A DNA stretch of 64,000 nt. Source: Candidatus Enterousia sp. (lineage in GTDB: Bacteria; Pseudomonadota; Alphaproteobacteria; Rs-D84). The stretch is from NCBI GenBank assembly GCA_045648925.1, contig JAZROY010000001.1, positions 8,841 to 72,840 of the forward strand, in the 5' to 3' direction. The number at the start of each line of letters is the position of its first letter. Within the stretch, counting starts at the first letter, position 1. Below the pieces are notes generated by a model. It was not told the origin of the DNA. It saw nothing but the letters and a program-made list of their open reading frames with translations, and searched no databases. The translations under genes were made by a program, and so were the position numbers. Shown here piece by piece: positions 13,218 to 52,960 of this stretch.

Positions 13218-13246
13218 AAAAACCGCCCAAAAGGCGGTTTCTTTTA
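13215..13246. terminator. bidirectional terminator (accgcc-caaaa-ggcggt) between leuS (+) and rpiB (-)
   Basis: The hairpin is flanked by A-runs and T-runs. Confidence 0.7.
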
Positions 13247-13693: not shown

Positions 13694-13695
13694 CT

Positions 13696-14040
13696 TTATT
13701 TGTCCTTTTTCTTTTCCAGTTTACATTCCAATCCTGTGTTTCCAGTGATGTTTAATGTTTTGTAGAACAGAGTGCCAGACATTTTAGCATTTGAAAACAC
13801 ATTTACAGTATTTATATTGGCATTGCCTTTTAAAGATCCATGTAAAAATAATGTTCGCGCAGTTATATCGCCAATAACATGTCCACCACGACCAATAATG
13901 ATTGTTTCGGCATCAATGTTGCCGTTTATTGTTCCGTGAATTTGAACCGTGTGGTCTGTTTCAATGTTCCCCTTAATCAGGCAACCTGCCCCTACGACCG
14001 TGGGAGATTTTTTTTCATCTGCGTTTGTGAATGCTAGCAT
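13696..14040 (-). CDS. bactofilin (DUF583 polymer-forming cytoskeletal protein)
   Basis: The 114-aa protein has repeating beta-helical windings (GNIETDHTVQIHGTINGNIDAETIIIGRGGHVIGDITARTLFLHGSLKGNANINTVNVF). Confidence 0.75.
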   Translation of the reverse strand: MLAFTNADEKKSPTVVGAGCLIKGNIETDHTVQIHGTINGNIDAETIIIGRGGHVIGDITARTLFLHGSLKGNANINTVNVFSNAKMSGTLFYKTLNITGNTGLECKLEKKKDK

Positions 14041-14056
14041 ATTCTCTTCCTTTCTT

Positions 14057-16017: not shown

Positions 16018-16055
16018 ACCTATATAATAATTGATTTAAACAAAAAGGCAAGTTT

Positions 16056-17051: not shown

Positions 17052-17129
17052 TTGGTTATATTTATTGAATACCATATATTATAAATTTATTGTAGTATAC
17101 CCTTTGTAAAACTAACAAATGGGATAAAA

Positions 17130-17936: not shown

Positions 17937-17943
17937 TAAAAAA

Positions 17944-19032
17944 ATGAAGATATTTATTATTGCAGGCGAAGTTTCCGGTGATGTTTTGGGTGCGAAAATA
18001 ATGCAGGAAATGGACGGGGTTGATTTTGTTGGGGTTGGTGGTCAATATATGACCAGGGCTGGATTAAAATCATTATTCCCTATGTCTGATTTGTCGGTTA
18101 TGGGTGTGTTCGAAGTTTTGGGACATGCACGCACTTTGATGAAGCGTATAAAGCAAACGGTTGGTGCCATAATCAAAGAAAAGCCAGATGTTGTTTTAAC
18201 AATCGATTCGCCAGGATTTGCAAAATCTGTTGTAAGAGGTGTGCGAAAAAAAGGGCTTTTGAATACAACAAAATTTTATCATGTTGTCGCGCCTCAGGTT
18301 TGGGCATGGGGGGCAAGTCGTGCCGGTAAATATGCCAAAATATTTGATAAATTATATGCTTTCTTTGATTTTGAAAAACCTTATTTTGAAAAATATGGGC
18401 TGCCCGTGGTTGCTGTTGGACACCCTATTTCTGATGGATTAAAAAAGTATAAAAAAACAGTCAAAAATAAAAAAATTATCACTTTTATCCCAGGAAGTCG
18501 TATAAGCGAAGTCAGAAAGTTATTACCAATATTTAATCGCACAATTGATAAATTGGGAAAAGATTACGAATTTGTTATACCAACTGTGGAAACCACAGAT
18601 GAATATATTCGCAAAAATATCCAAAATTGGGCAATAAAACCAAAATTAGTTTCTTCGGATAAAAGATATGAACTTTATGCGAATACTTATATCGCTGTTG
18701 CCGCCAGTGGCACTGTTTCTGCGGAACTTGCCATAATGCACATACCAACCATAGTTGTTTATAAAATGAACCCGTTAACAATGTTATTGGCGCATATTTT
18801 GATTCGTGTAAAATGGGCATCTTTGGTAAATATTTTGATGAACAAAACGATATTTCCAGAATTGCTGGGACAGAAAGCAAATCCAGTGGAAATAACAAAT
18901 ACCATCCATAAATTAACAGATGCAAAAGAAAGGAAAAAAATCATTGATGATTTGAAAAAAGCAGATAATCAATGGACAAGGTCTAACCAAAATGCAGCAA
19001 AATTAATCGCAGATGATATAATGTTATCCTGA
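17944..19032 (+). CDS. lpxB: lipid-A-disaccharide synthase
   Basis: The MKIFIIAGEVSGDVLGA N-terminus is canonical LpxB, and GPGS-type GT-B motifs are present. The start was chosen after the lpxA stop; the longer ORF from 17902 overlaps lpxA. Confidence 0.85.
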   Translation: MKIFIIAGEVSGDVLGAKIMQEMDGVDFVGVGGQYMTRAGLKSLFPMSDLSVMGVFEVLGHARTLMKRIKQTVGAIIKEKPDVVLTIDSPGFAKSVVRGVRKKGLLNTTKFYHVVAPQVWAWGASRAGKYAKIFDKLYAFFDFEKPYFEKYGLPVVAVGHPISDGLKKYKKTVKNKKIITFIPGSRISEVRKLLPIFNRTIDKLGKDYEFVIPTVETTDEYIRKNIQNWAIKPKLVSSDKRYELYANTYIAVAASGTVSAELAIMHIPTIVVYKMNPLTMLLAHILIRVKWASLVNILMNKTIFPELLGQKANPVEITNTIHKLTDAKERKKIIDDLKKADNQWTRSNQNAAKLIADDIMLS

Positions 19033-19049
19033 ATATGTTTTTTTTATTC

Positions 19050-21521
19050 TTAATTCCCAGATGATTTATGTTGTGGCACACCGTATCTTACAATATCTAT
19101 TTCTGATGGTTGTTGTGAATAATTATCTGCACATGTTATGGTGGCGGTGTTGGAATCAGAAACTATGTTCATTGTCGGGCAAATTTGTCCAAAACTGGAA
19201 ATGATAGATTGCTGACACCAATGTTGAGCAGAATCAATCGAACGCGGTTGTTGACACATTTCATCTGTATCAGAATTATCATCTGAACATAATATATCTA
19301 TTGAACATATTGGGTCGTCATCGCCAGATAATGCCGGTAAAAGTGGTCTGCATGTTGCGATTGTGCCGTTTTTACTTCTGTATCCGCCGTTTTCCCAACA
19401 AGAGCAAACACCCCAAGATTGTGTGTCTACGGTTATGCCATAATTTAATGGGCAGATATTTTCTTCGGGGATAAAATGATACCAATACACCAAAGAATCT
19501 GGTGAATTATGAACAGGGTTTATATAAAATATGCTGTCTGGGTTATCGGAATCAATCTTGCAGAAATTATTGGGATTATAGCCAGATTGTTCGGCATATT
19601 TATATTCAACAAAATACCCGCCAAGACCAGCGCAATGATTTGCCAATGTATCCATGATTTTATAATAAATTTCTGTGGCGATGCCTGTTGGTCGTGGTGT
19701 TCTTTGTGCGACATCATAGTCGGCAAAGGTATCAAATCCACCAAATACCTCGGCAATAATATTTTCACATCCAGGGGTATTTGCAACCTGTTGCGCGCAA
19801 GGTGAAATTATGTTTTGGTTTTCATCATAAAGTGTGAACCAATTCATCGCAGTTCCACGTGAAAACAGACCACTTTGCGTATAATAGAAATTACCGTATC
19901 CTGTGCCACCAAAATTGTCAAAACATTGCTTTGCAATTGTGCGACATGCGTTTATTGTGTCTGTTCTGTCTTTGTTTTCAATATAAACGTTGATTATGTC
20001 ATTATTAAACATACCATTACAGGACGAGATATAATCTGAACACATCTCAGATGTCAAAGAAATAGTAGCTGGTTTTAATAACAAAGTGGAATCGCCAGTT
20101 AAATTTGCCATCGCATTTGCAATAGATATTGTTTGTTTGTCATAGCAACCTGCAACCAAATCAAGACAACTTTGTTTAATTGTTTTTACCTTGTCTTGTT
20201 GTGCGTAATATATATCCAAAAGCGCCTTGTCCAGATATTGTTGCCACACAAAATCCGCATTTTCCACGCATTTGTCCAGTGAACTTTCCGCGAATTTTTT
20301 AGTTTTGTTTTCAAAAAATTGAACGAATTGGCGATTTTTTGCGATGGTTGATAATTTTTGGTCTTTTAATTCTTTGTCCGTGTTAAATGTTAACAATTCA
20401 CCCAGTTTATAAAAATCAGAAACCCCTGTTAATGGCGCGCCAGTTGTTACATCTATGAATTGACCATAATCAAGACATTTATGGTAATCAGAACCACAAA
20501 CTTCATCGCTTTGTATCGCAGATTCAACATTTGCAAGGCATGTCGCAATATCGTCAGAGTTATGTTTTTGACGATTTTCAACACGTGCTAAATCAAGCAT
20601 AGCACTGCTTTGATATGTTGCCGCTTTAAGATTTTTTTGCTGTTTTTGTAGTGCCGCTTCGACAGTGTTACAATCTTGTTCTATGGTCATCAGATATGCA
20701 TTGATTGCGCGTTGTAGGGACGCTTTGTTACAATCTTCCTGGACAATGTTTTTACATTTTGGATAAACCGCCTTGTATAAAGTGGTGCCGTTATAAGAAG
20801 CGATAATTTGCGAAGAATCATCAAGACCAAAAGCATAAGACATATCAGGCGAAATAATAATGCTGTTTAAATCTTGGTATTTACCGCTGACATATGCATC
20901 TTCGCCCTTGATAGAATTCATAATTGCCTGTAATAATTGTCTTGATGCAGATTTATCTTTGCTAAGTGCATCTTCGCCCTCAGATGCGGTTTTCATGGCG
21001 GTTGCTTGTTCTTTGGTTAATCCAACGACATCCAAGTTTTCAGAAAATTCAGACAATTGGTCGTTGGCACTTTGATAGGTTTCTGTAATATCTTGAAAAT
21101 CAAAAACCCGGTCACTGCATGAACATCTGCGATAAACATCGCTTTTTAGATAACAAAACTGATCCATACATGTAAAGAAAGCCGTTTTGCATTTTTCGTA
21201 TTCAGTACCTGTGCGTGTTTCGATAACAGAATTCGTGGTTGTTGTTGCACGCGCAGAAACATTGCGTGTTGTTGTCGCAGAGCGCGCTGTCGTGTTTCTT
21301 GTTGCTGTTTTTGATGAAGAATTCGTTGGCATTAAAATTGATACAGGCTTAGTCGAACGCGCAGATACAGTAGTCTTTAATGGGGTTCTGGACGTGATAG
21401 TGCGGGTCGCGCGCGCAGTTGAAGTTTTTGTCCGAGATACAGCGTTTTCGCCACGTGTGGCACCTTCTGCGCAGGTTAAGCAGAAAAGACAAGCATAAAC
21501 AAAAGTAAAAAATTTCTTCAT
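19050..21521 (-). CDS. large cysteine-rich secreted protein with an N-terminal Thr/Ser/Arg-rich low-complexity (mucin-like) tract, unknown family
   Basis: The start was set at MKKFFTFVYACLFCLTCAEG, a signal peptide with a GAGAG RBS upstream. The product is about 823 aa with more than 50 Cys. The N-terminal tract is a degenerate TRT/ATT repeat that is also visible at the DNA level. I recognise no known domain. Confidence 0.6.
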   Translation of the reverse strand: MKKFFTFVYACLFCLTCAEGATRGENAVSRTKTSTARATRTITSRTPLKTTVSARSTKPVSILMPTNSSSKTATRNTTARSATTTRNVSARATTTTNSVIETRTGTEYEKCKTAFFTCMDQFCYLKSDVYRRCSCSDRVFDFQDITETYQSANDQLSEFSENLDVVGLTKEQATAMKTASEGEDALSKDKSASRQLLQAIMNSIKGEDAYVSGKYQDLNSIIISPDMSYAFGLDDSSQIIASYNGTTLYKAVYPKCKNIVQEDCNKASLQRAINAYLMTIEQDCNTVEAALQKQQKNLKAATYQSSAMLDLARVENRQKHNSDDIATCLANVESAIQSDEVCGSDYHKCLDYGQFIDVTTGAPLTGVSDFYKLGELLTFNTDKELKDQKLSTIAKNRQFVQFFENKTKKFAESSLDKCVENADFVWQQYLDKALLDIYYAQQDKVKTIKQSCLDLVAGCYDKQTISIANAMANLTGDSTLLLKPATISLTSEMCSDYISSCNGMFNNDIINVYIENKDRTDTINACRTIAKQCFDNFGGTGYGNFYYTQSGLFSRGTAMNWFTLYDENQNIISPCAQQVANTPGCENIIAEVFGGFDTFADYDVAQRTPRPTGIATEIYYKIMDTLANHCAGLGGYFVEYKYAEQSGYNPNNFCKIDSDNPDSIFYINPVHNSPDSLVYWYHFIPEENICPLNYGITVDTQSWGVCSCWENGGYRSKNGTIATCRPLLPALSGDDDPICSIDILCSDDNSDTDEMCQQPRSIDSAQHWCQQSIISSFGQICPTMNIVSDSNTATITCADNYSQQPSEIDIVRYGVPQHKSSGN

Positions 21522-21659
21522 CTCTCGTTCAATTCTAGCAAAAATATAAAACGCAGAGCAAGCAAAATTACAAAGGTTTACCACAAAATATAGAATTTTT
21601 TTTGTATTTTTCTTGTTGCAAAATCGGACAATATAGTTTATTATGCTTCGTGCTTTAAC

Positions 21660-21746
21660 GGGCATATGGCGGAATTGGTAGACGCGCTAGTTTCAGGTAC
21701 TAGTGGTAGCGATACCTTGGAAGTTCGAGTCTTCTTATGCCCACCA
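21660..21746 (+). tRNA. tRNA-Leu (anticodon CAG)
   Basis: The acceptor stem is gggcata/tatgccc, followed by A and CCA. It has a long variable arm, and the anticodon stem ctagt/actag carries loop ttCAGgt. Confidence 0.85.
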
Positions 21747-23479: not shown

Positions 23480-25399
23480 TTAGTTCGCAGATGTCCAAGG
23501 TATATCGTTCATAAACAAATAAAACAATTCCCCCTTGGTTTCATCAGGATTAGTTTCATCAAGCCGAATTATTGGACGAACAACATAAATATCTACATTG
23601 CAATTTTGTCCGTGTTCGTCTTGATATTCGTTTAAAATATAATTAAATTTTTCTGCAAAATCCATTGCTTGTAAATAAGCGGCATCATCATCAGCGGCAT
23701 CTGTAGAATTACCTTCCCACATAAGCCACATACCATAATTAACTTCGTTTTCTTGACCGTTCAGGTCATCGGCAGATAACAAACAAAGTGGTTTAAATTC
23801 GATTCCGTTAGAATATTGTTGTGATGTATTGGATGTTCTGTCGTATAAATCACCAAGAAAAACCACGGCACCATAAAGTCCGCCAAGGTCGCGTTCGAAT
23901 CGTGCAAAACGCGCCCCATGTTTTAATGTAGAATCAATTAACCAATCGCCTATTTTGGCAGAACGCGAAGACATTCCGGCGCGCGCAACATTTGCTGCTT
24001 TGGTCATCGTTTTTGCACCACCCTGTGCGGCTTTTAATGTTTTGCCAGCTGTACCGATTTTTTTAAGGTTTCTTGTGACAATGTTTCCCGTTTGCGGTCG
24101 TTTAAAAGCGCGCAGATTTCGGCGATATTTCATCACATCAGAAAAAGATTCGGCGGTTTTTTTATACTGTTTGACAGAATCGTTCCCTTTTTCAAGTTCT
24201 TTGATTTCGTCTTCTAGTTTTTTTGTTTCTTGTCCCAAAGTTTTTTGCAAATCTTTTATTTTATCAGGATTTTTCAATGCCTCTTCTGTCACAGTTGGGT
24301 CAATTTTTTTTGCTGCATCCAATGTTTTATTTATTTCTTTTTCATATTTTGTTGTGTCTTTCCCTGTCTTTCTGGCTTTTTCCAGTTTTTTTACATTTTT
24401 TTCATATTTACCGAGTTTGGCAATATCGTCAGTTTTGGTTGTGATTTGTCGGGCAATTTGGATGTAATTTTGAACATCATCTAGTTTTGTTAATGCTTTT
24501 AATGAATTTTTTAAATTTTTTGCGGTTCTTGTTGCTCTTGCACCTTTTAATCCAATCATGGCGGCTTCGCCAGTGCCGACTGTGACAATAGTCAATGCAA
24601 CTTCTGCGGCAATTTCTGCATACATAATCCATTCCAAATTTACATCGCCAGCAACATAATAATCGTTGGTGTCTTTTTCTAAATCTACCAGTTCACGAAC
24701 AACCTGGTTTATAGTATAATGGTCGTTTGCCAGTGCAGATTTACTGGTACAGAATGCCCCACGCGGATAAATGTCATCAATGTTATCATTTATCCATTTC
24801 ATTGAAAGTGTATTGTTTTTATCTTGACCAACAAAGTTTGATAATGAATTATGTTCAACAACCATAATCGCATACCAAGCGGGGTCAGTGTTTATATACT
24901 TTGCCGGGTCATTTGTATCCATCAATCGTGGATTCGGATCGCCGTTTGGTAAACTTGGTTTGCCCGCCAATAATAATTTTTGATCCAACACTTTTAATTG
25001 TGTTGTATAATTTATAGTAATTTCCCGACCGTTTGGAAATTGAAAATAAATCGGTGTAAAAGTTACGGTTTGTAACCTGTCTGTAATTTTTTTAAGTTCT
25101 GGACAATCAAGCGCCTCTTGTAAAACATCTTTGTCAAACATAACAGTTTGCGCCCATGCGCGAACCTCAATCTCTGGGGTTTCGTCTTCGTCTATGTCGT
25201 CCATTTCATCGTAAAGCGCTTCTGTAAAAACCTGTGTAGCACAAGGTGTCAGATTTTCAGATTCTGGATGCGCCATCGCCAAAATTTCTTCGGCAGTAAG
25301 CATAATATCCGTATCTTGCGCAAACAAAGGCATCGTGAACAAAAACGCGAAAAACAAAAATATTTTTTTCACGATGTATTCCTTTGTTGAATTAATCAT
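23480..25399 (-). CDS. secreted protein with a central Lys/Glu-rich coiled-coil region (639 aa), unknown family
   Basis: It has a signal peptide (KKIFLFFAFLFTMPLFAQD) and a long charged, predicted helical segment. Its start overlaps the upstream gene's stop by 8 nt. Confidence 0.6.
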   Translation of the reverse strand: MINSTKEYIVKKIFLFFAFLFTMPLFAQDTDIMLTAEEILAMAHPESENLTPCATQVFTEALYDEMDDIDEDETPEIEVRAWAQTVMFDKDVLQEALDCPELKKITDRLQTVTFTPIYFQFPNGREITINYTTQLKVLDQKLLLAGKPSLPNGDPNPRLMDTNDPAKYINTDPAWYAIMVVEHNSLSNFVGQDKNNTLSMKWINDNIDDIYPRGAFCTSKSALANDHYTINQVVRELVDLEKDTNDYYVAGDVNLEWIMYAEIAAEVALTIVTVGTGEAAMIGLKGARATRTAKNLKNSLKALTKLDDVQNYIQIARQITTKTDDIAKLGKYEKNVKKLEKARKTGKDTTKYEKEINKTLDAAKKIDPTVTEEALKNPDKIKDLQKTLGQETKKLEDEIKELEKGNDSVKQYKKTAESFSDVMKYRRNLRAFKRPQTGNIVTRNLKKIGTAGKTLKAAQGGAKTMTKAANVARAGMSSRSAKIGDWLIDSTLKHGARFARFERDLGGLYGAVVFLGDLYDRTSNTSQQYSNGIEFKPLCLLSADDLNGQENEVNYGMWLMWEGNSTDAADDDAAYLQAMDFAEKFNYILNEYQDEHGQNCNVDIYVVRPIIRLDETNPDETKGELFYLFMNDIPWTSAN

Positions 25400-26636
25400 C
25401 TAGGACAATCGTTCCGTAATCAGCAGAAAAACCGTTAGAATCAATATGTCCTATTTCCATGATATAATCCCGACCATGCCAATCACATTTTCCCTTGTCT
25501 GCGACTTCATTTTGAATTTTTTCTTTTATTGTTTCGTATTCTTCAATTGTCATCTGTAATGGTGTTCCGCCAGTAGTTGATTTTACCAATAAACCTTCTT
25601 GGTTTTTATCTGCACAATATTTTGAGCCATCTCTGAATTTTGAAAACACTTTGGTATTAAGGTCATCGTCTAGTGGGTTTGTACCACATATTGCGTAGCA
25701 TCCACGACCAGAGTTTCCGGTTTTTCCAGTGCGATTTGAAGACGATGCGCGTTTGTGTATGCGCGCGTAGAGCATGTTTGGGTCACTGTCTTCTGGATTT
25801 TGTTGTTCTTGATCTTTGTTAACTTCACCTGGGGTCGTTTCATTTTGTTTTAAAGTTTGTTGTGTGCTTTTTTTGCATCCTTTGCTGTTTGGATGTTCTT
25901 CGCACCATTCTGATTCGCTTTTGACTTCCAATGTTTTATATGCGATCGCATCTTTGTACGGTTCAAGACCGGCGCGGTCGTTTTCCATACGCTCTGAAAA
26001 AGACAAATCGGCGTAGGTCGCCGGAAAATCTGTCTTGGTTAAATGTTCACTGCCCACACCGTTTTGCGATTGTAATCGTTGTAATTCGTCGCTTCGCTCT
26101 TTCTGCTCGATCTGCCATTTTGTGGGTTGTTGTTTATACGGATTTTCAAATTGTATTCCGCCCGAATCATCAATGTTTGTATTTGGGGTCGTTGCGCCTG
26201 GAAAAGCAACCGCCCGATTCGGTAAAGAATTGCCGTATTGTTTTTGATATGTTTCAAAAATGCCGTCAATGTATCCAGAACAAGCAGACACATAATTCGC
26301 CCCCGGCAGATTAGAAAGTTGAACCATTATCGTCGGCCGTATGTCCGAAATATCTGTGTTTTTACAATTGTCGCGCGCCATACATTGAACAGATACCAAT
26401 GATTGAACAACCCGGATACAATCGTCAGCGTTAAGGTCCGCGCCGGTCGCATACACAGGTTGTGGTAATCGCTGATTATACGGTGCGGTTGGTGACCAAA
26501 ATGGATTGGATGAATAATGTTGAACATTTTGAATTTGGCCGTAATCAGAAAACAGCGACACCGCCGCCGGCGCAGAAAACGCACAAAAACCGCAGATAAA
26601 AACGAACAACAAAGATTTAAAAAAGTCCTTTATCAT
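25392..26636 (-). CDS. secreted protein (414 aa), unknown family
   Basis: It has a signal peptide (LLFVFICGFCAFSAPAAVS). It lies 18 nt downstream of the prepilin peptidase gene on the same strand. Confidence 0.55.
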   Translation of the reverse strand: MIKDFFKSLLFVFICGFCAFSAPAAVSLFSDYGQIQNVQHYSSNPFWSPTAPYNQRLPQPVYATGADLNADDCIRVVQSLVSVQCMARDNCKNTDISDIRPTIMVQLSNLPGANYVSACSGYIDGIFETYQKQYGNSLPNRAVAFPGATTPNTNIDDSGGIQFENPYKQQPTKWQIEQKERSDELQRLQSQNGVGSEHLTKTDFPATYADLSFSERMENDRAGLEPYKDAIAYKTLEVKSESEWCEEHPNSKGCKKSTQQTLKQNETTPGEVNKDQEQQNPEDSDPNMLYARIHKRASSSNRTGKTGNSGRGCYAICGTNPLDDDLNTKVFSKFRDGSKYCADKNQEGLLVKSTTGGTPLQMTIEEYETIKEKIQNEVADKGKCDWHGRDYIMEIGHIDSNGFSADYGTIVLDD

Positions 26637-27780: not shown

Positions 27781-29970
27781 ATGATTGGCGAGAGAGAAAA
27801 TTTTGATTCACAAACACAATATGGTTCGCTGGTTATGCGCCCCTATGATATAGAAGGTAACGAAATCAGCGCTTTTTACGATTCGTCTGATAAATTGGTT
27901 TTTGTTTTGGATAATACAATCAGTTCTCGTAAACCTAATATTTTATTGGTAATTAATCCTGATGCAGATAAAAAGTGGGATGAAATATTGTCCGGCGATT
28001 ATGGTATTGATTTGGAAACGATTCGCCCAAAGCAAGATAATAAATATCAAAAATTTGATATCGAATATTCCGGGTTGGGTGTATACGATTCGCTGATAAA
28101 GGCATATGATGCAGGCGATTCGTTGGAAGAATCTTTAAACCAGTTGATGATTTTGCGTGATTCTGCGGCGCGACATAGTGCGATGACGCGTTTGAATATG
28201 GCAAATGAAGTAATCGCAAAAACAAACGCGACAATTGTAAAAACCAAGGAATCTATTGTCAGATTACAGGCGCGTCTTAAAACTTTGCGGGCTAAATTAG
28301 CAGAATCCAAGAAAGGCATTGGTCGTGAACCAACAAAACAATCTGCGTCCAAGATTTTAAAATTGGAATCTCAAATAGAAGCCACAAATGAAAAATTAAA
28401 ACGCGCAAATGAAAGATTAAAATCTGCCCAAAAGCGTTTAGAAACAGCAACTGTGGATGCCGAATTGGCAAGCCAATTATTAAACCAACCGGCTGGGGAA
28501 GTAAAACAAGTTGCTAAAAAACAAGTGATTCCAACAGTTGTTCCTGTTAAACAAAAATCTGTAACAAAGAAAAAACAGGCAGAACCAGAATACGATGAAT
28601 ATGAAGAAGAATACCAAGAAGATGTTGATATGAAAAATGATGCAAACAATGTTGTCAAACAAGAAGAAATTGAAGAAAAAACAGAACAAATAGAAGAAGA
28701 TTATAGCGATGAAGAAACTGAAAAAGTTGAACCTTTGTTTGATGAAGATCCACAAATATTGAATAACGATATCGCGTTTAAACCCATCAGTTTTGAACCA
28801 CCGGCTGTTCCTGAAATATCTAAATCTGACAATGTTCCGGTTGTAAATCAAGATGTGGTTGTGACAGAAGAAACAACAGAAACATTTACCCAAGAAGAAA
28901 AGGAAGATAATAATACAGATTACAAAACAAACCAAGACCAACAATCTGTGTTGGAATCTATGAAACCTATTCCTTTTGATGAAGATTTAAAACCTGTTCC
29001 TGTTGTTGATTTGTCTGAACCAGAAGAAATTGTCAAAGAAGAAATTATAGAAGAAAAACCAGAAACAAAAACAGAAGAAACAGATAAAAAAGAACCTTTG
29101 GAATTAGAAGTTGTCAAAGAAGATGTGCGGCAATATGAACCAGAAGTTGTTGAACGACCAACAGATACGGAAGAAAAAAATATATATGATGAATATCCGG
29201 TTGTGCCACCTGTCGCACCTGTTGCACCAGTGATACCACAAAGCCCTTCGAATATAAGTGTTGTTGATGATGTGGAACCAAAGCGGTCAAAATTCTTTTA
29301 TTATTTACTGTTGATTCTTTTGATTGTGTTGGCTGTGTTCACATTATGGTTATATCAAAAAAATGTGAAACCGTCGGTTCCTGTGTTGGCGGCATCTGTT
29401 GAAAAAACAGAATTACCAAAAGAACAAAATACTGTGTTTAAAAAAGGTAGTGGTTCGTCAAAGACAAGTAAAAATATCAAAGCGCCTGCGGTCAAAGAAG
29501 TAAAAAGAGGAATTGATATTGCTACCCCTTCTTTCCTGGATGAAGAACCTGTTGTTGAACCAATGCCAGAGCCAATAATAGAAGAAAAACCTACTGTCAA
29601 AGAAACAGTAGAAATTGTTGAACCTGTTGATGTCGCGCCACAGGTTATGGATGCTGTCCCTGCGCGCGTAACAACATCTGGTCAGCCCCAAGAAGATGAA
29701 AAAACTGGTTTGTCCGAAGAAGAGATTTTGGCCAATAAACCTGAATATCAACCAGGATCAAAATATGACGAAATGTTTGTTGCTGATGAAGGTGGCGAAA
29801 TAGTAAGTCCAATTAATGTTGAATATGTTGAAGATGATATTGTTTATATGCCACAAGAGCAAGAGATGCCAGAATATGTCGAAGAAAATGTCCAAATCCA
29901 AGACCCGTATTTTGACGAAGAAGAAGCGGCATACCAAGCTGAACAGGCAGGATTATATTATGAAGAATAA
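27781..29970 (+). CDS. large acidic bitopic membrane protein (cytoplasmic coiled-coil, central TM, Pro/Glu-rich C-terminal region), unknown function
   Basis: The 729-aa protein has heptad-like K/E/R-rich helices at residues about 150-250, a single TM segment (FFYYLLLILLIVLAVFTLWLY), and a PVAPVAP motif. It is very rich in Glu and Asp. Confidence 0.55.
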   Translation: MIGERENFDSQTQYGSLVMRPYDIEGNEISAFYDSSDKLVFVLDNTISSRKPNILLVINPDADKKWDEILSGDYGIDLETIRPKQDNKYQKFDIEYSGLGVYDSLIKAYDAGDSLEESLNQLMILRDSAARHSAMTRLNMANEVIAKTNATIVKTKESIVRLQARLKTLRAKLAESKKGIGREPTKQSASKILKLESQIEATNEKLKRANERLKSAQKRLETATVDAELASQLLNQPAGEVKQVAKKQVIPTVVPVKQKSVTKKKQAEPEYDEYEEEYQEDVDMKNDANNVVKQEEIEEKTEQIEEDYSDEETEKVEPLFDEDPQILNNDIAFKPISFEPPAVPEISKSDNVPVVNQDVVVTEETTETFTQEEKEDNNTDYKTNQDQQSVLESMKPIPFDEDLKPVPVVDLSEPEEIVKEEIIEEKPETKTEETDKKEPLELEVVKEDVRQYEPEVVERPTDTEEKNIYDEYPVVPPVAPVAPVIPQSPSNISVVDDVEPKRSKFFYYLLLILLIVLAVFTLWLYQKNVKPSVPVLAASVEKTELPKEQNTVFKKGSGSSKTSKNIKAPAVKEVKRGIDIATPSFLDEEPVVEPMPEPIIEEKPTVKETVEIVEPVDVAPQVMDAVPARVTTSGQPQEDEKTGLSEEEILANKPEYQPGSKYDEMFVADEGGEIVSPINVEYVEDDIVYMPQEQEMPEYVEENVQIQDPYFDEEEAAYQAEQAGLYYEE

Positions 29971-31872: not shown

Positions 31873-32430
31873 TTATTGTATTTGTTGTTTTATAAAATTA
31901 AAATTTATATCTATATCATCGGTTGGTAATTTGATATCGTAAAATGTAACATTTGGTTGCTGGGAAAGCCACATTATTGCCGGCATAGTTGTTGATTTAA
32001 ACGCGGCAATTCGTTTCTGGACAGCGGCGGTATCATTGTCATCAGAACGGTTGCCCCCTTCCCTTATTCTTTTTTGAATATGTGCAATCATGGTTTCTTC
32101 AGTGATGTTTAAAAATATTATTTTAATATTAAATTTATCTGCATAATTTGCGACCAACCATTTGGCTTGACCGATTGTGCGTGGAAATCCATCAAGTATT
32201 AAATCTTTGTTGGTTTTAATATGTTCGGCGATAATAGGAAACAAATCTTCATCGCCCACCAATTCACCGCGTGTAATTTTTTTACATATTTCGGATTCTT
32301 TTGGCATGGTGCGTAAAATTGCCCCTGCTTCGACATAATTAAAATCGTGTTCTTTTAACAGTAGATTCGCAAAGGTTCCTTTACCCGAACCTTGACCGCC
32401 CATAAAAACAATCATATCTGGTTTTGTCAT
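31873..32430 (-). CDS. adk: adenylate-kinase-family nucleoside monophosphate kinase (short form)
   Basis: It has a P-loop (GGQGSGKGT) and the NMP-binding region ILDGFPRTIGQA. It is 185 aa. Confidence 0.7.
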   Translation of the reverse strand: MTKPDMIVFMGGQGSGKGTFANLLLKEHDFNYVEAGAILRTMPKESEICKKITRGELVGDEDLFPIIAEHIKTNKDLILDGFPRTIGQAKWLVANYADKFNIKIIFLNITEETMIAHIQKRIREGGNRSDDNDTAAVQKRIAAFKSTTMPAIMWLSQQPNVTFYDIKLPTDDIDINFNFIKQQIQ

Positions 32431-34222: not shown

Positions 34223-34380
34223 AGTTTGCCGTCGTCATAATCTTTTGTAAAGACGAGGTCTTGTGGGGTTAATCGGATTGATTTGCGCGCCCACCCGCGA
34301 AATCTGGCACATTATATAGCGCTTTTTAAAGAAAATCAAGAAAAAACAAATAAAAAAACCGCCCGTTTGGGCGGTCGGGT

Positions 34381-35292
34381 TTATCTGCTAAGTTGCTTTT
34401 TTGCATCTGCAATAATAATTGAACGGGTTGTGTTGTATTCTGAAACAGCTGCATTTTGTTTCAAAACTTGTTTTTGTTTTGCGTTATTGATTTGTTTTTG
34501 CAATTCCAAATAATGGTTCTTTTTAGAAAGTTCACCCATATATTCATGGTAAATATCAAATGCCCCATGTCTTGGACGGTTCGTTTCGCCAGCGTGTGCA
34601 AAGGTGTGTTTAAAGCCAGGTTTTGTGATGCTGTTCAATTTGACACAAATGTCACGCAACTCTTTGATGACGTCTATTTGTTCCTTTGTGATATTGTTTG
34701 CGTATGGTGAAGAATCTTCAACAATATAGTTAGGGATGCTATGTTCTGGGGTTGTTGCATCAAGTATTTTAGCCATTTTCAATAACAATGATTCCATTTC
34801 TGGTCTGTTTTCTGGTTTTACAATGAAAATCTTATGTGGCGCTGCGTTGGTGTTTAAAACATAAGCAATACTGTTATATCTTTTAAAGACACCACGATAA
34901 CGTTTGGGCATGTTTGTATATGCCCCGTCGGATATATATGGGCGTTTGTCGCGCTTCTTAACAAGCTTAGTATCAGTTAATATTTCCCATGGATAATTAT
35001 GAAAATAACCAGACGAAGGCAGACATTTGTTTTGTATTTTACATGTTAAACGTTCAAAGTAATTCCAATAGAAATCTGTAAAGAACATACCATATATTAT
35101 CAATCGGTTATGTAGGTTTTCTCCTTCAAAAGTTTTACCAGTAGTGCACATAAATTTTTCTGGATTCCATGCTTCTGAAACAGAATATTCCAAATTCATA
35201 AGATCAGATAACAAAACATCAGGTCGTTGATTTAAAATACTAGTGTCTACTTTTTTTAATTTGTTGCTAAAATTTGTTAAAAAATTTCCCAT
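34381..35292 (-). CDS. hypothetical protein, paralog A of a tandem pair (unknown family)
   Basis: It is 303 aa and shares conserved blocks with the upstream paralog (MPKRYRGVF...Y.L; RHGAFDIY.EY..EL..KN.Y...Q.AINN). It has no signal peptide. Confidence 0.6.
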   Translation of the reverse strand: MGNFLTNFSNKLKKVDTSILNQRPDVLLSDLMNLEYSVSEAWNPEKFMCTTGKTFEGENLHNRLIIYGMFFTDFYWNYFERLTCKIQNKCLPSSGYFHNYPWEILTDTKLVKKRDKRPYISDGAYTNMPKRYRGVFKRYNSIAYVLNTNAAPHKIFIVKPENRPEMESLLLKMAKILDATTPEHSIPNYIVEDSSPYANNITKEQIDVIKELRDICVKLNSITKPGFKHTFAHAGETNRPRHGAFDIYHEYMGELSKKNHYLELQKQINNAKQKQVLKQNAAVSEYNTTRSIIIADAKKQLSR

Positions 35293-35308
35293 AATACGTC
35301 CTTTTTTA

Positions 35309-36226
35309 TTATTTTGTGCGGTTTTTTAAGTTGGCGATAAGTTGTTTCCGTACATTGATATCATTTTGTTTTGCGTGGTCTATTAACACCAATATACCAG
35401 AACGGTTTTTTTCATCCGCTTGTTCAGCAAGATATTGCAAGCCAGTGTATTCTGCAATCGTGTTATTGATAGCGTTTTGGGCATTTGCGTAACGATTTTT
35501 TTGTGTCAATTCGTTCTGGTATTCATTGTAAATATCAAAGGCACCATGTCTTGTCATGCCGTCATATCTGTTGACTAAAATTTCTTTGACATAAATGTTT
35601 GTAATTCTATCTATGTGTAAGAATATATCACGTAATTTGTTAATAGTATTGATTTGGTTTTCGCTTACCAAACGTGAAGACAAAGAATATTTTTGAACAA
35701 AATCTGGTGCAGTAACTTTTTTAGCAATGCGTTTTTCTGACGCGTTAGTATTTAATTGCCATTTTGTTCTGTAAATTCTTGGAATCAGAATTCTGGCATA
35801 GTCCAATAATTCTTCCAATATTTGTTTATCAGATTTTCTTGTTGAAACAACTGGTCTTGCTTCGTCTTGGATGTGTAATACATAATGTTCATTGTCAAAT
35901 TGGGTAAAAACACCACGATAACGTTTTGGCATTTTGTTGTATTCTTCATTAGAAATTTTTGGAAAATCATTTGTTTGACTTGATAACACTTGTAATTGTT
36001 TGTCGTTTAGTTTTCTGTCCAAAAATTCTAAATATGTATCGAACATATTTTTAAAGAAAATTCCGTTTACCAAAACTTGATTCTGAGGATTTAATGTTTC
36101 GTACTTGTTTGGGCTGATTATGCTTTTTGTTTCGTTTAATGCTTTGTCTGCAATAAAAGCACAACTTTGAAGTTCCAGAATAAAATCTGTTGGGTTCATA
36201 TTATTTAATTTTGATGCATTTGACAT
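35309..36226 (-). CDS. hypothetical protein, paralog B of a tandem pair (unknown family)
   Basis: It is 305 aa with the same conserved blocks as 34381-35292. It lies 16 nt upstream of paralog A. Confidence 0.6.
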   Translation of the reverse strand: MSNASKLNNMNPTDFILELQSCAFIADKALNETKSIISPNKYETLNPQNQVLVNGIFFKNMFDTYLEFLDRKLNDKQLQVLSSQTNDFPKISNEEYNKMPKRYRGVFTQFDNEHYVLHIQDEARPVVSTRKSDKQILEELLDYARILIPRIYRTKWQLNTNASEKRIAKKVTAPDFVQKYSLSSRLVSENQINTINKLRDIFLHIDRITNIYVKEILVNRYDGMTRHGAFDIYNEYQNELTQKNRYANAQNAINNTIAEYTGLQYLAEQADEKNRSGILVLIDHAKQNDINVRKQLIANLKNRTK

Positions 36227-36325
36227 TTTAAATCCTTATGTTTATAAATTGGGTTATGATTATAGAAAAAATATATGGAAAGTCAAATAAAAAGCCCCGG
36301 TTTTTAAGGGGGGGGGCTTTGATTA

Positions 36326-37282
36326 TTATCTGGCTACCTCGCCCTTAATAGCAGAATGGCAAATATAATCTTTTAAAACAAATCCACCGTCTGCAGACCA
36401 GTTCAGCAACCCGTTCCAGTTGTTGTCCGGAATTTCAACGCTTGGGAGTTTGTTTGGTTTGCGTGAAAGTTGCTCTTTGACCTGGGCAATATGATTTTCA
36501 TAAATATGAACATCGTGTAATTCGCCACGCAAGACACCAGGTTTATAACCTGTTTCTTTGGCATATAACATTAACAATAGCGCATAAGAAGCAATGTTAT
36601 ATGGGATACCCAAAAACATATCACAAGAACGTTGTGTCCATATTAAATTAAGTTTTCCATTATGAACCAAAATCTGGTGCATTATATGGCAAGGTGGCAA
36701 AGCCATTTTATATTGGTCCACTGGGTTCCATGCGCTTACAATAATACGGCGATTGTTTGGGTCTGTTTTGATTGTGTCGATTGCGTTTGCAACTTGGTCA
36801 ATTCCGCGATTTCTGGTATCAAAGTTTTCATCTGGAGTTTCCGGGTTCCAAACATATTTTCCGCCAAAATGACGCCATTGCCAACCATAAATAGGTCCCA
36901 AATCGCGTTCGTTGTTCATACATTCGTTTTGTAATTGTTGAACTTCTTCGTCTGTTAATCTTCTTTGCTTTTCGATTTGTAAATTTGCCCATTTTTGACG
37001 AAATATTGGTTTCCATTTAGGTGCGCTTGCCCATTCGTCCCAAATATGACATTTGCGGTCTTGAAGCCATTTTTTATCTGTATAACCTTTGATAAAAAAT
37101 TCCAATTCTGTGGCGATGTTTTTCAATCCCATTTTCTTGGTGGTCAATAACGGAAAACCAGTTTCCATATCGTGTTCAAAAGTTGCACCCCATGGAATAC
37201 GGATAGTTTTTATTCCTGTGCGATTATCAGAGATTGTGCCGTTTTCCAAACAGTTTTGTAATATATCGAGATATGCTTTCAT
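36326..37282 (-). CDS. thyA: thymidylate synthase (ThyA type)
   Basis: It has the active-site block LPPCH (ALPPCHIMHQ) and the folate-binding motif DMFLGIPYNIASYALL. It is 318 aa. Confidence 0.9.
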   Translation of the reverse strand: MKAYLDILQNCLENGTISDNRTGIKTIRIPWGATFEHDMETGFPLLTTKKMGLKNIATELEFFIKGYTDKKWLQDRKCHIWDEWASAPKWKPIFRQKWANLQIEKQRRLTDEEVQQLQNECMNNERDLGPIYGWQWRHFGGKYVWNPETPDENFDTRNRGIDQVANAIDTIKTDPNNRRIIVSAWNPVDQYKMALPPCHIMHQILVHNGKLNLIWTQRSCDMFLGIPYNIASYALLLMLYAKETGYKPGVLRGELHDVHIYENHIAQVKEQLSRKPNKLPSVEIPDNNWNGLLNWSADGGFVLKDYICHSAIKGEVAR

Positions 37283-38698: not shown

Positions 38699-38799
38699 AA
38701 TTTATCCTTTGGATATTAAACTGGGGTTGATTATACAAGTATTTTTTTCAAAATTCAACATAAACATTTATAAAAATATACCTATAATCTCATATAACA

Positions 38800-38832
38800 A
38801 AAAACCGCCGTTCGGGCGGTTTTTTGAATAAT
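38800..38832 (-). terminator. rho-independent terminator after rpsI (accgccgttcgggcggt)
   Basis: A hairpin with a T-run lies on the minus strand. Confidence 0.65.
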
Positions 38833-38844
38833 TCTTGAAAACGA

Positions 38845-39387
38845 TTAACGTTTGCTGAATTGAGTAGAACGACGAGCCTTGTGATAACCATAATGCTTAC
38901 GTTCAACAACACGACTGTCGCGTGTCAAGAAGCCAGCGGCCTTTAATGCCTTGCGTAAATCTGGTTCTGCTTTTTCCAATGCTTTGGAAATACCGTGTTT
39001 TACGGCACCAGCCTGGCCAGATAAACCACCACCGGCAACCATAGCAATTACATCATATGCGCCATCGCGTTTTGTGACATCAAAAGGTTGAACCAAAATC
39101 ATCTGCAACACAGGACGTTTGAAATAATCTTTCATTGGTGTTCCATTGATAACAATGTTGCCCTTGCCCGGTGTCAAATAAACGCGCGCGACAGAGTCCT
39201 TGCGTTTACCGGTTGCGTAAACAGAACCATTCAATTTTGTTGTTGCTACGGTCGCTGTTTTAGCAGCAGCTGAGGTTTTTGTGGTTGTCTTTGTTGTTTT
39301 TGCAGTCGTTGCTTTTTTCGCAGGGGCTGCTTTTTTAGTAGTTGTTTTCACAGCGGTTTTTGTTGCTGTCTTTTTTGTTTCTGCCAT
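38845..39387 (-). CDS. rpsI: 30S ribosomal protein S9 with a ~55-aa Ala/Lys/Thr-rich N-terminal extension
   Basis: It has a conserved S9 core with the C-terminus ...[12 protein letters not shown]. The N-terminus ([32 protein letters not shown]...) is low-complexity and basic. Confidence 0.85.
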
Positions 39388-49228: not shown

Positions 49229-52200
49229 ATGGCTGTTTTTCGGGCTTTTTATCGTGGTTTTGGACGCATGTTATTTGTGTCGGTTTTGTGCTTTGCGTGT
49301 GGTTTTCTATCTGCTCGGGCGGAAGAATATACAATTGTATACCTTAATCAACACGGTGATGAGATTAGTGATTTAACACCGGATAGATATACAGAAGAAG
49401 AATTGCCGTTGGCAAAAGAAAACTTGCCGAATAGCGAAGCGGTAAGCATAGCAACAGGTTGCGAATTGGCAGACGAACTATGGTATTGGGATGATAAGAT
49501 GTCAGAACCTGTGGACCAAATAGAATCTGTCTCAGACGAAGGGACAACTTTGTACGGGAATTTGGATTGTGGTGAAAACCGAATCGTGGCTTTGAATTCA
49601 GCAGGTAAAGAAGGAATTGGTTCTGGTGGAACGAGGATACTCTATTATTATCGTAATTTGGGTGAATCTGGTGAATTCTTTTATAATGAGTATAACGGTA
49701 GTAAATCTGCGTCTGGTGTGGCGTCATCCATAGTGTTGCCGACATATGATGATGAAAGTTATACTTTCTTAGGGTATTATGCAGACCCAGACGATATGGA
49801 AACACAATGTATTAATGAACGGGGATACATAACAGAATACGGTATCCAGCAAATGGCAGAAGGTGGCGAAGGTGAAACATCATGGGATGCAGTGTATGAT
49901 CCCAAAATAATCCCTAAGAACATTATACAGTTACTACCAAATTATGGTTCTTCTTTTACTAGTCCAGGGACAGGTTATATATATGGAGTCCCGTCGACGT
50001 ATGGTGGCGGGATATACGATGCATATTCTGGGGGTAACCAAATATCGTCAATAACTATTCCAACATGGGGTGGACATAGTTTCTTAGGGTATTATTCTTC
50101 TAGTAGTGCGAATTCGACTCAATATATAGATTCCGTTGGTAATATTACGGCCGCAGGTATAGCAAAAGCGCAAGAAAATCCTGGGGGCTCGAATCAAACT
50201 TGGTATGGTCACTGGTCAGGAACATATAGTTTGCACTATGACTGTTCGACTAATTATAATGTTGTAGGTCAACAAGGGAACGGTACCGCACCGGCGGACG
50301 AACCTCATTCTGCTGGGCAACCTGTCACATTGCAACAAAATCAAGGGTGTTATCCTACGGATTCATATTATTCTTTTGGTGGTTGGAATTGTTTTAATCG
50401 GGTAGAAGTGATTCAAGCTGGTGGTTATTCTATAACGACTGATTACAGCAATGGCCCAATAAATAACGGATATAATTTGACAATGCCTTATAATGATGTG
50501 TGGTGTGAACCAATTTGGATACCTTCTAATGTGACGTTATCATATAATTGCGGATGGTTGCCAAATACTAACACGCCCGTTTCTGGACCTGCGCCGTCAT
50601 TGGTTTATGGTTCGGCGCCGTTGGGAGGAAATTTGGCATCAGCCGCCGCGGCACAGAATACTTGTATAATAGATACCAATACTTACAGTTTTGTTGGGTG
50701 GTATTGTCCGGGGGGGGCTTGGATATCGGAACCAGGCGGTGTATTCAGCATTACGGAAGATGCAACTTGTTATGCCGTGTGGGCAGAAAACAATCCGTGT
50801 GCCCCTGGGAGCGAGGCCAGCAACAGTCCAGAAATTTTGGGTGGCACAATTAGTGATTGGAATCAGATACAACAACTTTTTGTTTCATTAAATGATTTGT
50901 CTGGAATGTGTAGTGAAACTGTTGGTAGTTATCCCGGACAGATTGGAACACCTTCTTCCACATCTGGCGATTATTGTTGGTGTCAAGCAACTTCTTATAA
51001 TTCAACACCATTAAATAATTATCCATGGGTGTTTGTTCAGTATTACAATGGTTGTAACGTAGCAAATTGTCAATCTTGGTGTTTGTCCTCGATTAACCAA
51101 AAAGATCCTGATTATTTCTTTAATGTTTCTTTGTTAAGTAATCCGATATGTGAATATACATTGGATTATGATTGTGGAACTGTCGGTGGTACTGCTCCGT
51201 CATCTGTTTCAGGAATAATTCCAACAAATATCACACAAAACAGTCCGATGTCATTGGCGTCTACTGCGCCAAGTTGTAACAACGGCAACAACACTTTATC
51301 TGGTTGGACATGTTATGCTAGTTCAGATACAGGGCAAACAACACCTTTGACAAGTGCATCATATTCCTTAGATACCATGCCTTATGATAATGTAACTTGT
51401 TATGCGAATTGGGTTCCGCCCCAGGGATATACTGTGACGTATAATTGTGATAATGGTAATGCACAACAGAGTAGCATGCTTGGTGGAACTTATAACTATG
51501 GGGCTACTGTGACATTGTGGACACAAAATGGTAATTCTGTTGGTTCGTGTGATGTTCCGAGTAATAGAGTGTTTGTTGGCTGGAACTGCTATTTTGATAA
51601 TCCTGATGCTTATTCTCCACAAGCTACATATGATACTACTGGTTATTATCAGACGGTTCTTTATTTATCTGATTATACAGAATCTGGCACGAGCATATCT
51701 GTAGATAATGTGATTTGTACGGCGCAATGGGCTTGTGATACAACGAATGGTTATACGTGGGATAATCTAACGCAAAGTTGTGTTAATGAGTACAAAATTT
51801 ATTATAATCCTGGTCAACATGGAAATTATGGAACTGGCAGTTGGGGTTCCAATGGTTTTGGACCAGGGGCAAGCAATGGTGGTGGAACATTTGGTCAGTA
51901 TTGGTCAACGCAACTTTTGTCGGCAACGACCATAGTGCCGGATGATTCTTGTTATGAATTTTGTGGTTGGAGCACGGTATGGAATGACACTTGTGGTAGT
52001 GCGAATATTTTGACTGCTGGGGCACAACAACCAAACGTATGGGATCTTACAACTTATTTGAATCTGTATGCGGTTTGGCAATGTGCGAGCGGTTGTGTAG
52101 CAAGTGGTGATGCTTGTGTTTCTGCGCCGGCAACCTATATTGTCACCTATCATGGTGGAACTTGTTTGCCAAGTGCCTCAGATTATCAAAGTGATCCGAT

Positions 52201-52960
52201 AAATGCAGGCGACAGTTATATCGTGGAAAATCCGAATTGTACATATGCGAATTCACATTATTTTATACCAACCGATAACTGTTATGAATTTGTTGGGTGG
52301 AGCGAAGATAACCCTGCCACGCAAAATCCAACGATAGATTATAACAATTGTGATAATTGTACCACCCAAACGGGCAGTTGTGGAACAATCTTCAACGTAT
52401 CGTCTAACATAGACCTTTATGCGATATGTGATGTTATGGCGCACAATGTGATATATCATGATTGCGATAATACATATACTTATACTGATTCAAATGCTGT
52501 TTGGATTGGGCAAAGTTCGGATTATACACCGTTATCGCCATCTGTGGCGCCGTTAAGTTCGTCAGATTTGAAAATAGACCCATTATCCAGTTTCCAGGGC
52601 TGGGCAACATCAGAAACTGCTGGTGATGGTAAATCGTGGTGTGGATTAGAGTCGGGTGATTTATACCCGGAATTGTATGGTGGAAACGGTAAAGAAACTA
52701 AGTACAATTATTCTGTGAGCGCCGATAAATTGTGTCATGATATCGATTTGTATGCGGTGTGTTGTCCGTTGAATTTAAGTTGGATTTTAAACGGTGGACA
52801 ATGGCCAACAGACCCAAATAATCAAACAACTTTGCAAAACCAGACATCGTGTGAATATGGGGCGACTGCAGGACAATCTGGTTCGATTACACCATTGCAG
52901 ACCCCATTAAAGCCAGGATACACATTTAATGGATGGCTGGTAACAGGTTATACACCTTAA
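49229..52960 (+). CDS. giant secreted cysteine-containing repeat protein (1243 aa), Listeria-Bacteroides (Flg_new/InlB B-repeat-like) repeat family
   Basis: An N-terminal signal region is present. There are about 12 modules of 75-95 aa with the pattern Y-x-[VL]-x-Y-[DN]-C..G.....C....[FY].GW.C......(M/T)P...V.C[YT]A.W or LYAV(W/C). A C-terminal GYTFNGW motif is present. The protein is very rich in G, S, T, N and Y. Confidence 0.75.
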   Translation: MAVFRAFYRGFGRMLFVSVLCFACGFLSARAEEYTIVYLNQHGDEISDLTPDRYTEEELPLAKENLPNSEAVSIATGCELADELWYWDDKMSEPVDQIESVSDEGTTLYGNLDCGENRIVALNSAGKEGIGSGGTRILYYYRNLGESGEFFYNEYNGSKSASGVASSIVLPTYDDESYTFLGYYADPDDMETQCINERGYITEYGIQQMAEGGEGETSWDAVYDPKIIPKNIIQLLPNYGSSFTSPGTGYIYGVPSTYGGGIYDAYSGGNQISSITIPTWGGHSFLGYYSSSSANSTQYIDSVGNITAAGIAKAQENPGGSNQTWYGHWSGTYSLHYDCSTNYNVVGQQGNGTAPADEPHSAGQPVTLQQNQGCYPTDSYYSFGGWNCFNRVEVIQAGGYSITTDYSNGPINNGYNLTMPYNDVWCEPIWIPSNVTLSYNCGWLPNTNTPVSGPAPSLVYGSAPLGGNLASAAAAQNTCIIDTNTYSFVGWYCPGGAWISEPGGVFSITEDATCYAVWAENNPCAPGSEASNSPEILGGTISDWNQIQQLFVSLNDLSGMCSETVGSYPGQIGTPSSTSGDYCWCQATSYNSTPLNNYPWVFVQYYNGCNVANCQSWCLSSINQKDPDYFFNVSLLSNPICEYTLDYDCGTVGGTAPSSVSGIIPTNITQNSPMSLASTAPSCNNGNNTLSGWTCYASSDTGQTTPLTSASYSLDTMPYDNVTCYANWVPPQGYTVTYNCDNGNAQQSSMLGGTYNYGATVTLWTQNGNSVGSCDVPSNRVFVGWNCYFDNPDAYSPQATYDTTGYYQTVLYLSDYTESGTSISVDNVICTAQWACDTTNGYTWDNLTQSCVNEYKIYYNPGQHGNYGTGSWGSNGFGPGASNGGGTFGQYWSTQLLSATTIVPDDSCYEFCGWSTVWNDTCGSANILTAGAQQPNVWDLTTYLNLYAVWQCASGCVASGDACVSAPATYIVTYHGGTCLPSASDYQSDPINAGDSYIVENPNCTYANSHYFIPTDNCYEFVGWSEDNPATQNPTIDYNNCDNCTTQTGSCGTIFNVSSNIDLYAICDVMAHNVIYHDCDNTYTYTDSNAVWIGQSSDYTPLSPSVAPLSSSDLKIDPLSSFQGWATSETAGDGKSWCGLESGDLYPELYGGNGKETKYNYSVSADKLCHDIDLYAVCCPLNLSWILNGGQWPTDPNNQTTLQNQTSCEYGATAGQSGSITPLQTPLKPGYTFNGWLVTGYTP

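Follow-up and report, generated by a model that had tools for sequence, protein, structure and literature searches.

Tandem paralogs between tig and rpsA belong to an orphan protein family of uncultured rumen and gut Alphaproteobacteria

Background

Proteins of the H-NS/MucR/GapR/HU class are basic, strongly expressed and non-enzymatic, they oligomerise through helices, and lineage-specific forms of them are known. The class offers an analogy, and only an analogy, for two adjacent genes that we studied in a 64,000-nucleotide stretch of DNA from Candidatus Enterousia sp. (contig JAZROY010000001.1 of assembly GCA_045648925.1, positions 8,841 to 72,840); this whole stretch is called the window, and coordinates given without a locus name are positions within it. 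Both genes are on the minus strand, the upstream paralog being gene A (35309..36226; 305 amino acids (aa), isoelectric point (pI) 9.2) and the downstream paralog gene B (34381..35292; 303 aa, pI 9.3), and their products may share the properties just listed. We found that A and B belong to a small family, restricted to uncultured rumen and gut Alphaproteobacteria, that could not be assigned to any known kind, and we tentatively favour a role for its members as abundant, non-enzymatic binding or scaffold proteins.

Other described systems also bear comparison with this pair. In A, the PKRYRGVF motif followed by two strands and a helix (residues 100-151) superficially recalls the YRGVR...W.A.I...helix arrangement of AP2/ERF and integrase-type domains. 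An AP2- or integrase-like DNA-binding unit was nevertheless rejected: there was no match to Pfam PF00847, hhalign gave a probability of 1.2% against AtERF1 (1GCC), Foldseek with a model of the core found no AP2 or integrase match, and the strands of A lie in a larger mixed sheet. The best match in a profile search of the PDB was the C-terminal ribosome-binding and dimerisation domain of yeast GCN2 (4otm; E 0.0018, 20.7 bits, profile positions 149-241), obtained with a narrow profile. With a broader profile the E-value rose to 0.098, and this chain is not among the Foldseek matches listed, so we took the likeness to be due to chance. With those substrates of VirB/D4-type secretion systems that have positively charged C-terminal signals, the present family shares a C-terminal tail of net positive charge, a feature considered below together with the evolutionary data. 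We found no named family that is homologous to A and B, and the database records of their relatives read only "hypothetical protein".

The gene pair and its conserved residues

The two open reading frames (ORFs) are separated by a spacer of 16 nt (35293..35308). An earlier description of this DNA, hereafter the sequence-only reading, had reported two adjacent minus-strand ORFs of 303 and 305 aa with a gap of that size, and its coordinates proved exact. BLASTP aligned A with B at 28% identity over 302 columns (97 bits, E 7e-28), an E-value that marks them as genuine, deeply diverged paralogs; the tandem paralogy proposed earlier therefore stands, with an identity slightly lower than the 30-35% then estimated. 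The shared blocks that had been pointed out, MPKRYRGVF...YVL and RHGAFDIY(N/H)EY..EL(T/S)(Q/K)KN(R/H)Y, are real, and they turned out to be the best-conserved motifs of the family as a whole. Hydrophobic N-terminal signals and transmembrane stretches are missing from both sequences, again in agreement with the first description. Orthologs of B share 58-67% identity, apart from one divergent match at 43%.

Ten alignment columns are near-invariant across the family (P12, Y96, P100, Y103, R104, Y115, L198, F202, E235 and Y236). These are aromatic residues, prolines and leucine along with one arginine and one glutamate, and no glycine-rich loop accompanies them; on this account we assign no catalytic site to the family. 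Judged by residue type, the conserved positions look like structural residues with a possible salt bridge and would not be catalytic, which makes an enzyme, or a toxin that acts as one, less likely. A potential metal site, H-x3-D-x3-E-x3-E on the long helix, was considered and rejected, since conservation across the family is confined there to E235 and Y236.

Searches for known families and predicted structure

Neither A nor B matched a known family. The best Pfam E-values were 0.13-0.17, NCBIfam gave no match, and no PADLOC family was matched at E up to 1. When 51 full-length members of the family were scanned singly, no Pfam family was matched by more than one of them, and the nine PHROGs families that were matched were each matched by a single member, none recurrently; the matches of A and B themselves to Pfam and PHROGs were isolated and weak. 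No match in Pfam, NCBIfam, PADLOC, PHROGs or the PDB sequences was credible or recurrent, and the earlier description of A and B as members of an unassignable, lineage-specific family holds.

An AlphaFold2 model of full-length A, built from the family alignment, reached a predicted local distance difference test score (pLDDT) of 81.8 and a predicted template modelling score of 0.65. The model consists of N-terminal helices (residues 1-84), an alpha/beta core that contains the PKRYRGVF...YVL motif (86-228) and a C-terminal helical hairpin (229-304) formed by helices 229-269 and 272-304. Residues 86-250 were also modelled alone, in order to take away helices, and gave a pLDDT of 82.0 with the strands in a larger mixed sheet. 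Foldseek searches with the full-length model returned only long-helix noise, the best E-values being 0.14 in the PDB and 0.15 in BFVD, and a search of the PDB with the core model matched nothing (best E 2.2). Neither the PDB sequence profile nor Foldseek with these confident models, then, placed the family in a solved fold. A flagellin-like secreted filament had seemed worth considering, given the tandem paralogs, the variable regions and the lack of a signal peptide, but no flagellin Pfam family was matched, the proteins are not acidic but basic, and the architecture predicted for them is a different one.

Transcription unit and expression

Upstream of A lies a promoter-like site, TTGACT-16 nt-TATAAT (36259..36286, minus strand), in which 11 of 12 positions match the sigma-70 consensus; the pattern TTGAC[AT]-N16-18-TATAAT occurs nowhere else in the window. 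A corresponding TTGACA-N17-TATAAT is found upstream of the family gene in five relatives' loci (L004, L005, L006, L015 and L016, the last with TATGAT), even though the proteins concerned share only 20-40% identity and the gene in L016 lies in another genomic context. Ribosome-binding sites, read directly from the sequence as AAGGA on the minus strand, precede both genes, that of A at 36233..36237, six nt before the ATG, and that of B at 35299..35303, within the spacer, which implies a bicistronic unit. Downstream of B is an intrinsic terminator (34347..34376, minus strand; GACCGCCC-AAAC-GGGCGGTT followed by a T-run). A second hairpin, AAAGCCCC...GGGGCTTTTT with a C9 tract in its loop and then a T-run (36289..36320, minus strand), terminates thyA and lies between that gene and the A promoter. 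With a promoter of its own, two AAGGA sites and terminators on both sides, the A-B pair forms an autonomous bicistronic unit.

The terminator with a G9 tract that had been noticed between the pair and thyA is confirmed, the tract (36308..36316 on the plus strand, C9 on the coding strand) forming the loop of the thyA stem-loop. This hairpin is kept in relatives, with C6 in L008 and C5 in L002 and L003. The difference in length from C5 to C9 may reflect slippage-prone variation or an assembly artefact; the homopolymer lies outside the hexamers and spacer of the A promoter.

The codon adaptation index of A (0.66) is the highest among the non-reference genes of the window, and that of B is 0.62; the reference set comprised only four genes (ribosomal-protein genes, tig and rpsA), so these values are weak evidence of expression. 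Taken together, the near-consensus promoter, the strong ribosome-binding sites and a codon usage close to that of the reference genes suggest that A and B may be expressed at a high level and constitutively.

Distribution and duplication of the family

In word-indexed searches of 5.8 billion proteins, A had 23 related clusters and B had 14. The family was delimited at 67 proteins (E <=0.001) when a profile of 27 sequences was run exhaustively with HMMER against 1.84 billion representatives of clusters at 50% identity; nearly all of the 67 are 250-350 aa long, with a few short fragments besides. Among one genome each of 185,579 species, only two contain detectable relatives; both are metagenome-assembled genomes labelled "uncultured proteobacterium", and one is a rumen RUG bin. 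The NCBI cluster mates (>=90% identity) of A, B and the allele at locus L003 (MBQ6012268.1/MBQ6012269.1, MBQ3784947.1 and others) likewise come from metagenome-assembled genomes of Alphaproteobacteria, and they are entered as "hypothetical protein [Alphaproteobacteria bacterium]", with no domain or function named. We found no published work on these cluster mates, nor anything relevant to the family in the literature on rumen RF32 Alphaproteobacteria. No member was detected by tblastn in plasmid or phage collections, and none in IMG/VR. The family is inherited vertically and is confined to a clade of uncultured rumen and gut Alphaproteobacteria.

Each locus carries one copy or two, never more, and a search of the 64-kb window with the family profile found A and B only. 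With at most two copies per locus and 67 clusters in all, the family is not expanding, contrary to what the sequence-only reading had proposed.

The neighbour-joining tree of the family has two deep clades. The pair at L015 (L015 10001..11991, upstream of thyA) has one member from each, while A and B of the window are sister subclades inside a single clade. A further pair, at L021 2767..4756, consists of proteins of 336 and 321 aa with 44% identity, both A-like, and represents a third, independent duplication. Tandem pairs have thus arisen and been kept repeatedly (A with B, L021 and L015), and this suggests that the state with two paralogs is advantageous, whether because the products are hetero-oligomeric or because they are subfunctionalised.

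Chromosomal slot and the neighbourhood of thyA

The gene order argS-rplM-rpsI-tig-...-rpsA-adk-like-corA-acpS is conserved among the loci compared, and in more than 12 distinct loci the family gene lies in the interval between tig and rpsA. In one divergent lineage (L016) it is found off this slot, between a UbiE-like methyltransferase gene and ssb. The position of thyA (in the window 36326..37282, minus strand, 318 aa, outside the A-B unit and a neighbour of it by position) varies within the same interval. Writing X for a family gene, the order is tig-thyA-X-X-rpsA in the window, L008, L001, L011 and L021; tig-thyA-X-rpsA in L002, L003, L004 and L023; tig-X-X-thyA-rpsA in L015; tig-X-thyA, in some cases followed by rpsA, in L022 and L006; and tig-X-rpsA, with no thyA, in L005.

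Adjacency to thyA had been one reason to propose that A and B are accessories of nucleotide metabolism. Such an accessory might be a partner of thymidylate synthase or a dihydrofolate reductase not orthologous to the usual one. In bacteria folA is often found beside thyA, the family gene adjoins thyA in most loci, and a gene for a kinase of the ADK family lies just past rpsA. The adjacency is nevertheless only positional, since thyA is upstream, downstream or absent in different lineages: L005 does without it, and L006, L015 and L022 have it on the other side. A terminator and a promoter separate thyA from A, so that conserved operonic linkage was not found, and thyA alleles are exchanged apart from A and B, as shown by a thyA of 72% amino acid identity in an otherwise near-identical strain. 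The family, moreover, has no conserved catalytic, nucleotide-binding or cofactor-binding motif, and its members are only 20-30% identical where rpsA of the clade is about 97% identical, which is unlike an essential enzyme. Variable synteny, separate transcription units, independent exchange of thyA and the lack of conserved catalytic residues largely refute such a role, which we consider the least credible of the explanations discussed here, and we infer that having thyA as a neighbour says nothing about the function of A and B.

A toxin-antitoxin, abortive-infection or other defence pair at a variable hotspot was the second kind of function that the context might suggest, and a toxin-like pair had in fact been raised earlier. 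The unit does have two genes, and its neighbourhood is plastic, some lineages having a variable giant ORF between rpsI and tig, and L011 and L012 an element with IS1595, resolvase and FtsK genes after B. A and B, however, are homologous to each other, lineages with a single copy exist, and no constellation of catalytic residues is conserved. No locus of the clade lacks the gene, which keeps the same slot in all fetched lineages but one and is thus a core gene rather than an accessory or patchily distributed one. Nothing was found by the PADLOC, plasmid, phage and IMG/VR searches and the PHROGs search gave no recurrent match, and on these grounds a defence, toxin or phage origin was rejected; we regard it as very improbable.

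Evolutionary rate and recombination

Ratios of nonsynonymous to synonymous substitution (dN/dS), estimated by the Nei-Gojobori method, were 0.19-0.43 for A and 0.16-0.21 for B. The flanking genes rplM, rpsI, tig, rpsA, corA, acpS and argS gave 0.01-0.14, and thyA and the adk-like gene were intermediate, at 0.06-0.24. Both ORFs are intact in all loci and strains examined, with no frame disruptions, and values of 0.16-0.43, which are not near 1, indicate purifying selection; neither copy is therefore a pseudogene, and both are functional but relaxed or fast-evolving, changing several times as fast as the ribosomal-protein, tig, corA and acpS genes nearby. Across loci where rpsA is 96-99.6% identical, the family gene is only 38-64% identical.

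Recombination has acted on this region more than once. Between the window and the near-identical strain L008 the flanks differ by a synonymous divergence (dS) of only 0.003-0.05, and A and B are 95% and 98% identical; thyA, in contrast (36326..37282 against L008 8900..9904, 318 and 334 aa), has only 72% amino acid identity and a dS of 1.2. This difference is a recent allele swap by recombination, independent of A and B. In L003, the whole A-B cassette (34381..36226) is replaced by one 282-aa allele (L003 4297..5145) that is 56-61% identical to A. Nucleotide identity between the window and L003 is 92-100% up to the start codon of A, falls to 73-81%, and then gives way to unalignable sequence in which B is missing, before returning to 99% just beyond the B terminator, so that the start codon of A and the terminator of B are the breakpoints. 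This swap does not, in our view, prove diversifying selection, since divergent imports of a comparable kind also occur in argS, thyA and the adk-like gene.

The same data bear on the possibility, also raised by the sequence-only reading, that the family encodes a secreted or translocated effector, or a protein that faces an antagonist (host, protist or phage) in some other way, which would evolve in an arms race and use its basic C-terminal tail as a VirB/D4-type signal. Nearly every C-terminus is R-x-(K/R), with a mean charge of +2.8 over the last 15 residues; a positive tail of this sort is what a type IV substrate would have, yet the feature is non-specific. A start of MG(N/K)xx(T/S), possibly akin to a myristoylation motif, is seen in some members. 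The dN/dS values lie above those of the ribosomal-protein, tig, corA and acpS flanks, and the cassette has been replaced by a divergent single allele at precise breakpoints. With no Sec signal, any export would need a non-Sec route, but no secretion system, and specifically no type IV secretion gene, is present in the window (64 kb) or in the relatives' loci that were fetched (<=21 kb). The dN/dS values are well under 1 throughout, and the imports seen in argS, thyA and the adk-like gene mean that the cassette swap is not gene-specific. No eukaryote-like or other effector-type domain was found by Pfam in the 51 members, a core gene in one fixed slot is not a variable effector repertoire, and a conserved, strong promoter of housekeeping type would be unusual for an effector. 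It is the basic tail that speaks for an effector, and we think the explanation unlikely.

Possible functions

The members of the family look soluble and are consistently basic: pI exceeds 8.8 in 49 of the 51 and is typically about 9.3, against a median of 6.6 for the proteome of the window, in which ribosomal proteins, GcrA and proteins whose N-termini are hydrophobic are among the other basic ones. The C-terminal hairpin has the highest density of positive charge (+5 over 73 aa). At the other end, most family members have an N-terminal amphipathic helix, with hydrophobic moments of 0.6-0.8 for many of the N-terminal 11-mers. The helix of B (MGNFLTNFSNKLKK) has a moment of 0.61, compared with 0.22 in A, and the A-type clade is without it; judging from the sequences, B has probably kept an ancestral amphipathic helix that A has lost.

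These N-terminal helices could mean that the family is a cytoskeletal or scaffold protein associated with the inner membrane, anchored by the amphipathic helix and polymerising through the hairpin, with A as the helix-less partner of B. A long C-terminal helical hairpin in the model, a basic protein and seeming abundance would all fit such a role. The helix appears dispensable, however, because the entire A-type clade does without it and includes lineages with a single, A-type copy (L002 and L003). The AlphaFold2 model, further, puts the N-terminal helices inside the folded N-terminal domain, and no match to bactofilins, intermediate-filament-like proteins or BAR domains was obtained, the BAR chains among the matches listed being noise (E >1). 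We therefore regard a membrane scaffold as a doubtful candidate.

The explanation we favour, with confidence that falls somewhat short of even, is that A and B are abundant, non-enzymatic binding or scaffold proteins that oligomerise and contact a polyanion, most likely nucleic acid. We base it on the probable abundance of the proteins, their basic charge, the lack of an active site and the presence of a hairpin suited to oligomerisation. In this scheme the C-terminal helical hairpin of the model would mediate oligomerisation, and the positive surface would contact a polyanionic partner, most likely nucleic acid (the nucleoid, or the ribosome or other RNA) and less likely the membrane; lineages with two paralogs would probably form hetero-oligomers or split the roles between the two proteins.

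A more specific form of the nucleic-acid proposal would make A and B subunits of an undescribed, highly abundant nucleoid- or ribosome-associated protein, specific to this clade and with a fold absent from the PDB; this we consider possible, at a clearly lower level of confidence. It is also conceivable, as part of the same proposal and at a similarly low level of confidence, that the one- and two-gene cassettes are interchangeable and recombine between strains at a fixed slot. Weighing against a nucleoid role, A and B have no likeness in sequence or fold to the H-NS/MucR/GapR/HU class, and at about 300 aa they are two to three times the size of a typical nucleoid-associated protein.

Other features of the window

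The window is ordinary for a Gram-negative chromosome, with lpxA and lpxB, a ybgC-type thioesterase gene, ruvB, hisS, prfA, leuS, tRNA genes and the RNase P RNA; a gcrA gene nearby is in keeping with the Alphaproteobacteria. Several neighbours of the pair vary between loci. The S9 protein encoded by rpsI (38845..39387) is extended at its N-terminus by about 50 aa in which lysine, threonine and alanine abound; the extension looks histone-H1-like and is the part of the protein that varies. The adk-like gene just downstream of rpsA (31873..32430) encodes a 185-aa kinase of the ADK family that is unusually variable in comparison with its neighbours, at 48-94% amino acid identity between loci. In other bacteria cmk is usually the gene directly upstream of rpsA.

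Between rpsI and tig, three loci have an orphan ORF of 763-1354 aa on the opposite strand with a faint match to DUF7631 (L001 2948..5239, L002 2578..5343 and L004 3338..7402). It is absent from the window, where the intergenic region is 146 bp (38699..38844), and from L003 and L008, and the site thus amounts to a second variable slot beside tig. In L011 and L012 a mobile element (about 12075..20890) occupies the position directly after the B ortholog, in the place usually taken by rpsA; it carries two transposases of the IS1595 family, a resolvase, an FtsK/SpoIIIE-like ATPase and small ORFs.

The genome is rich in proteins without Pfam matches, at least six large ORFs of the window being of this kind. 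Regions encoding large proteins of this sort are 49229..52960, 54061..61542, 27781..29970, 19050..21665 and 23480..26636, and the products include proteins of 1243 aa (pI 4.05), 729 aa (pI 4.4, beside gcrA), 871, 639 and 414 aa. A counterpart of the 729-aa protein occupies the same position in the loci that reach that far (L001, L002, L008 and L015). The ORF of 2493 aa has Listeria-Bacteroides repeats, which suggest a surface protein.

Conclusions

No known kind can be assigned to the family of A and B, and new biology is not thereby demonstrated: in a genome so rich in Pfam-less proteins, we regard it as an orphan family with clear limits and not as a system shown to be new. A small and clean family with a confident model and a tight motif (PKRYRGxF...YxL, xxIYxEY) is a tractable target for structural genomics. 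If A and B are indeed abundant architectural or nucleic-acid-binding proteins with a fold not seen before, they would give the biology of bacterial chromatin or translation a component specific to one lineage and represent a new class of accessory protein in one or the other. Such a role would also explain why a widespread group of uncultured rumen and gut Alphaproteobacteria keeps a conserved and strongly promoted gene of this kind.

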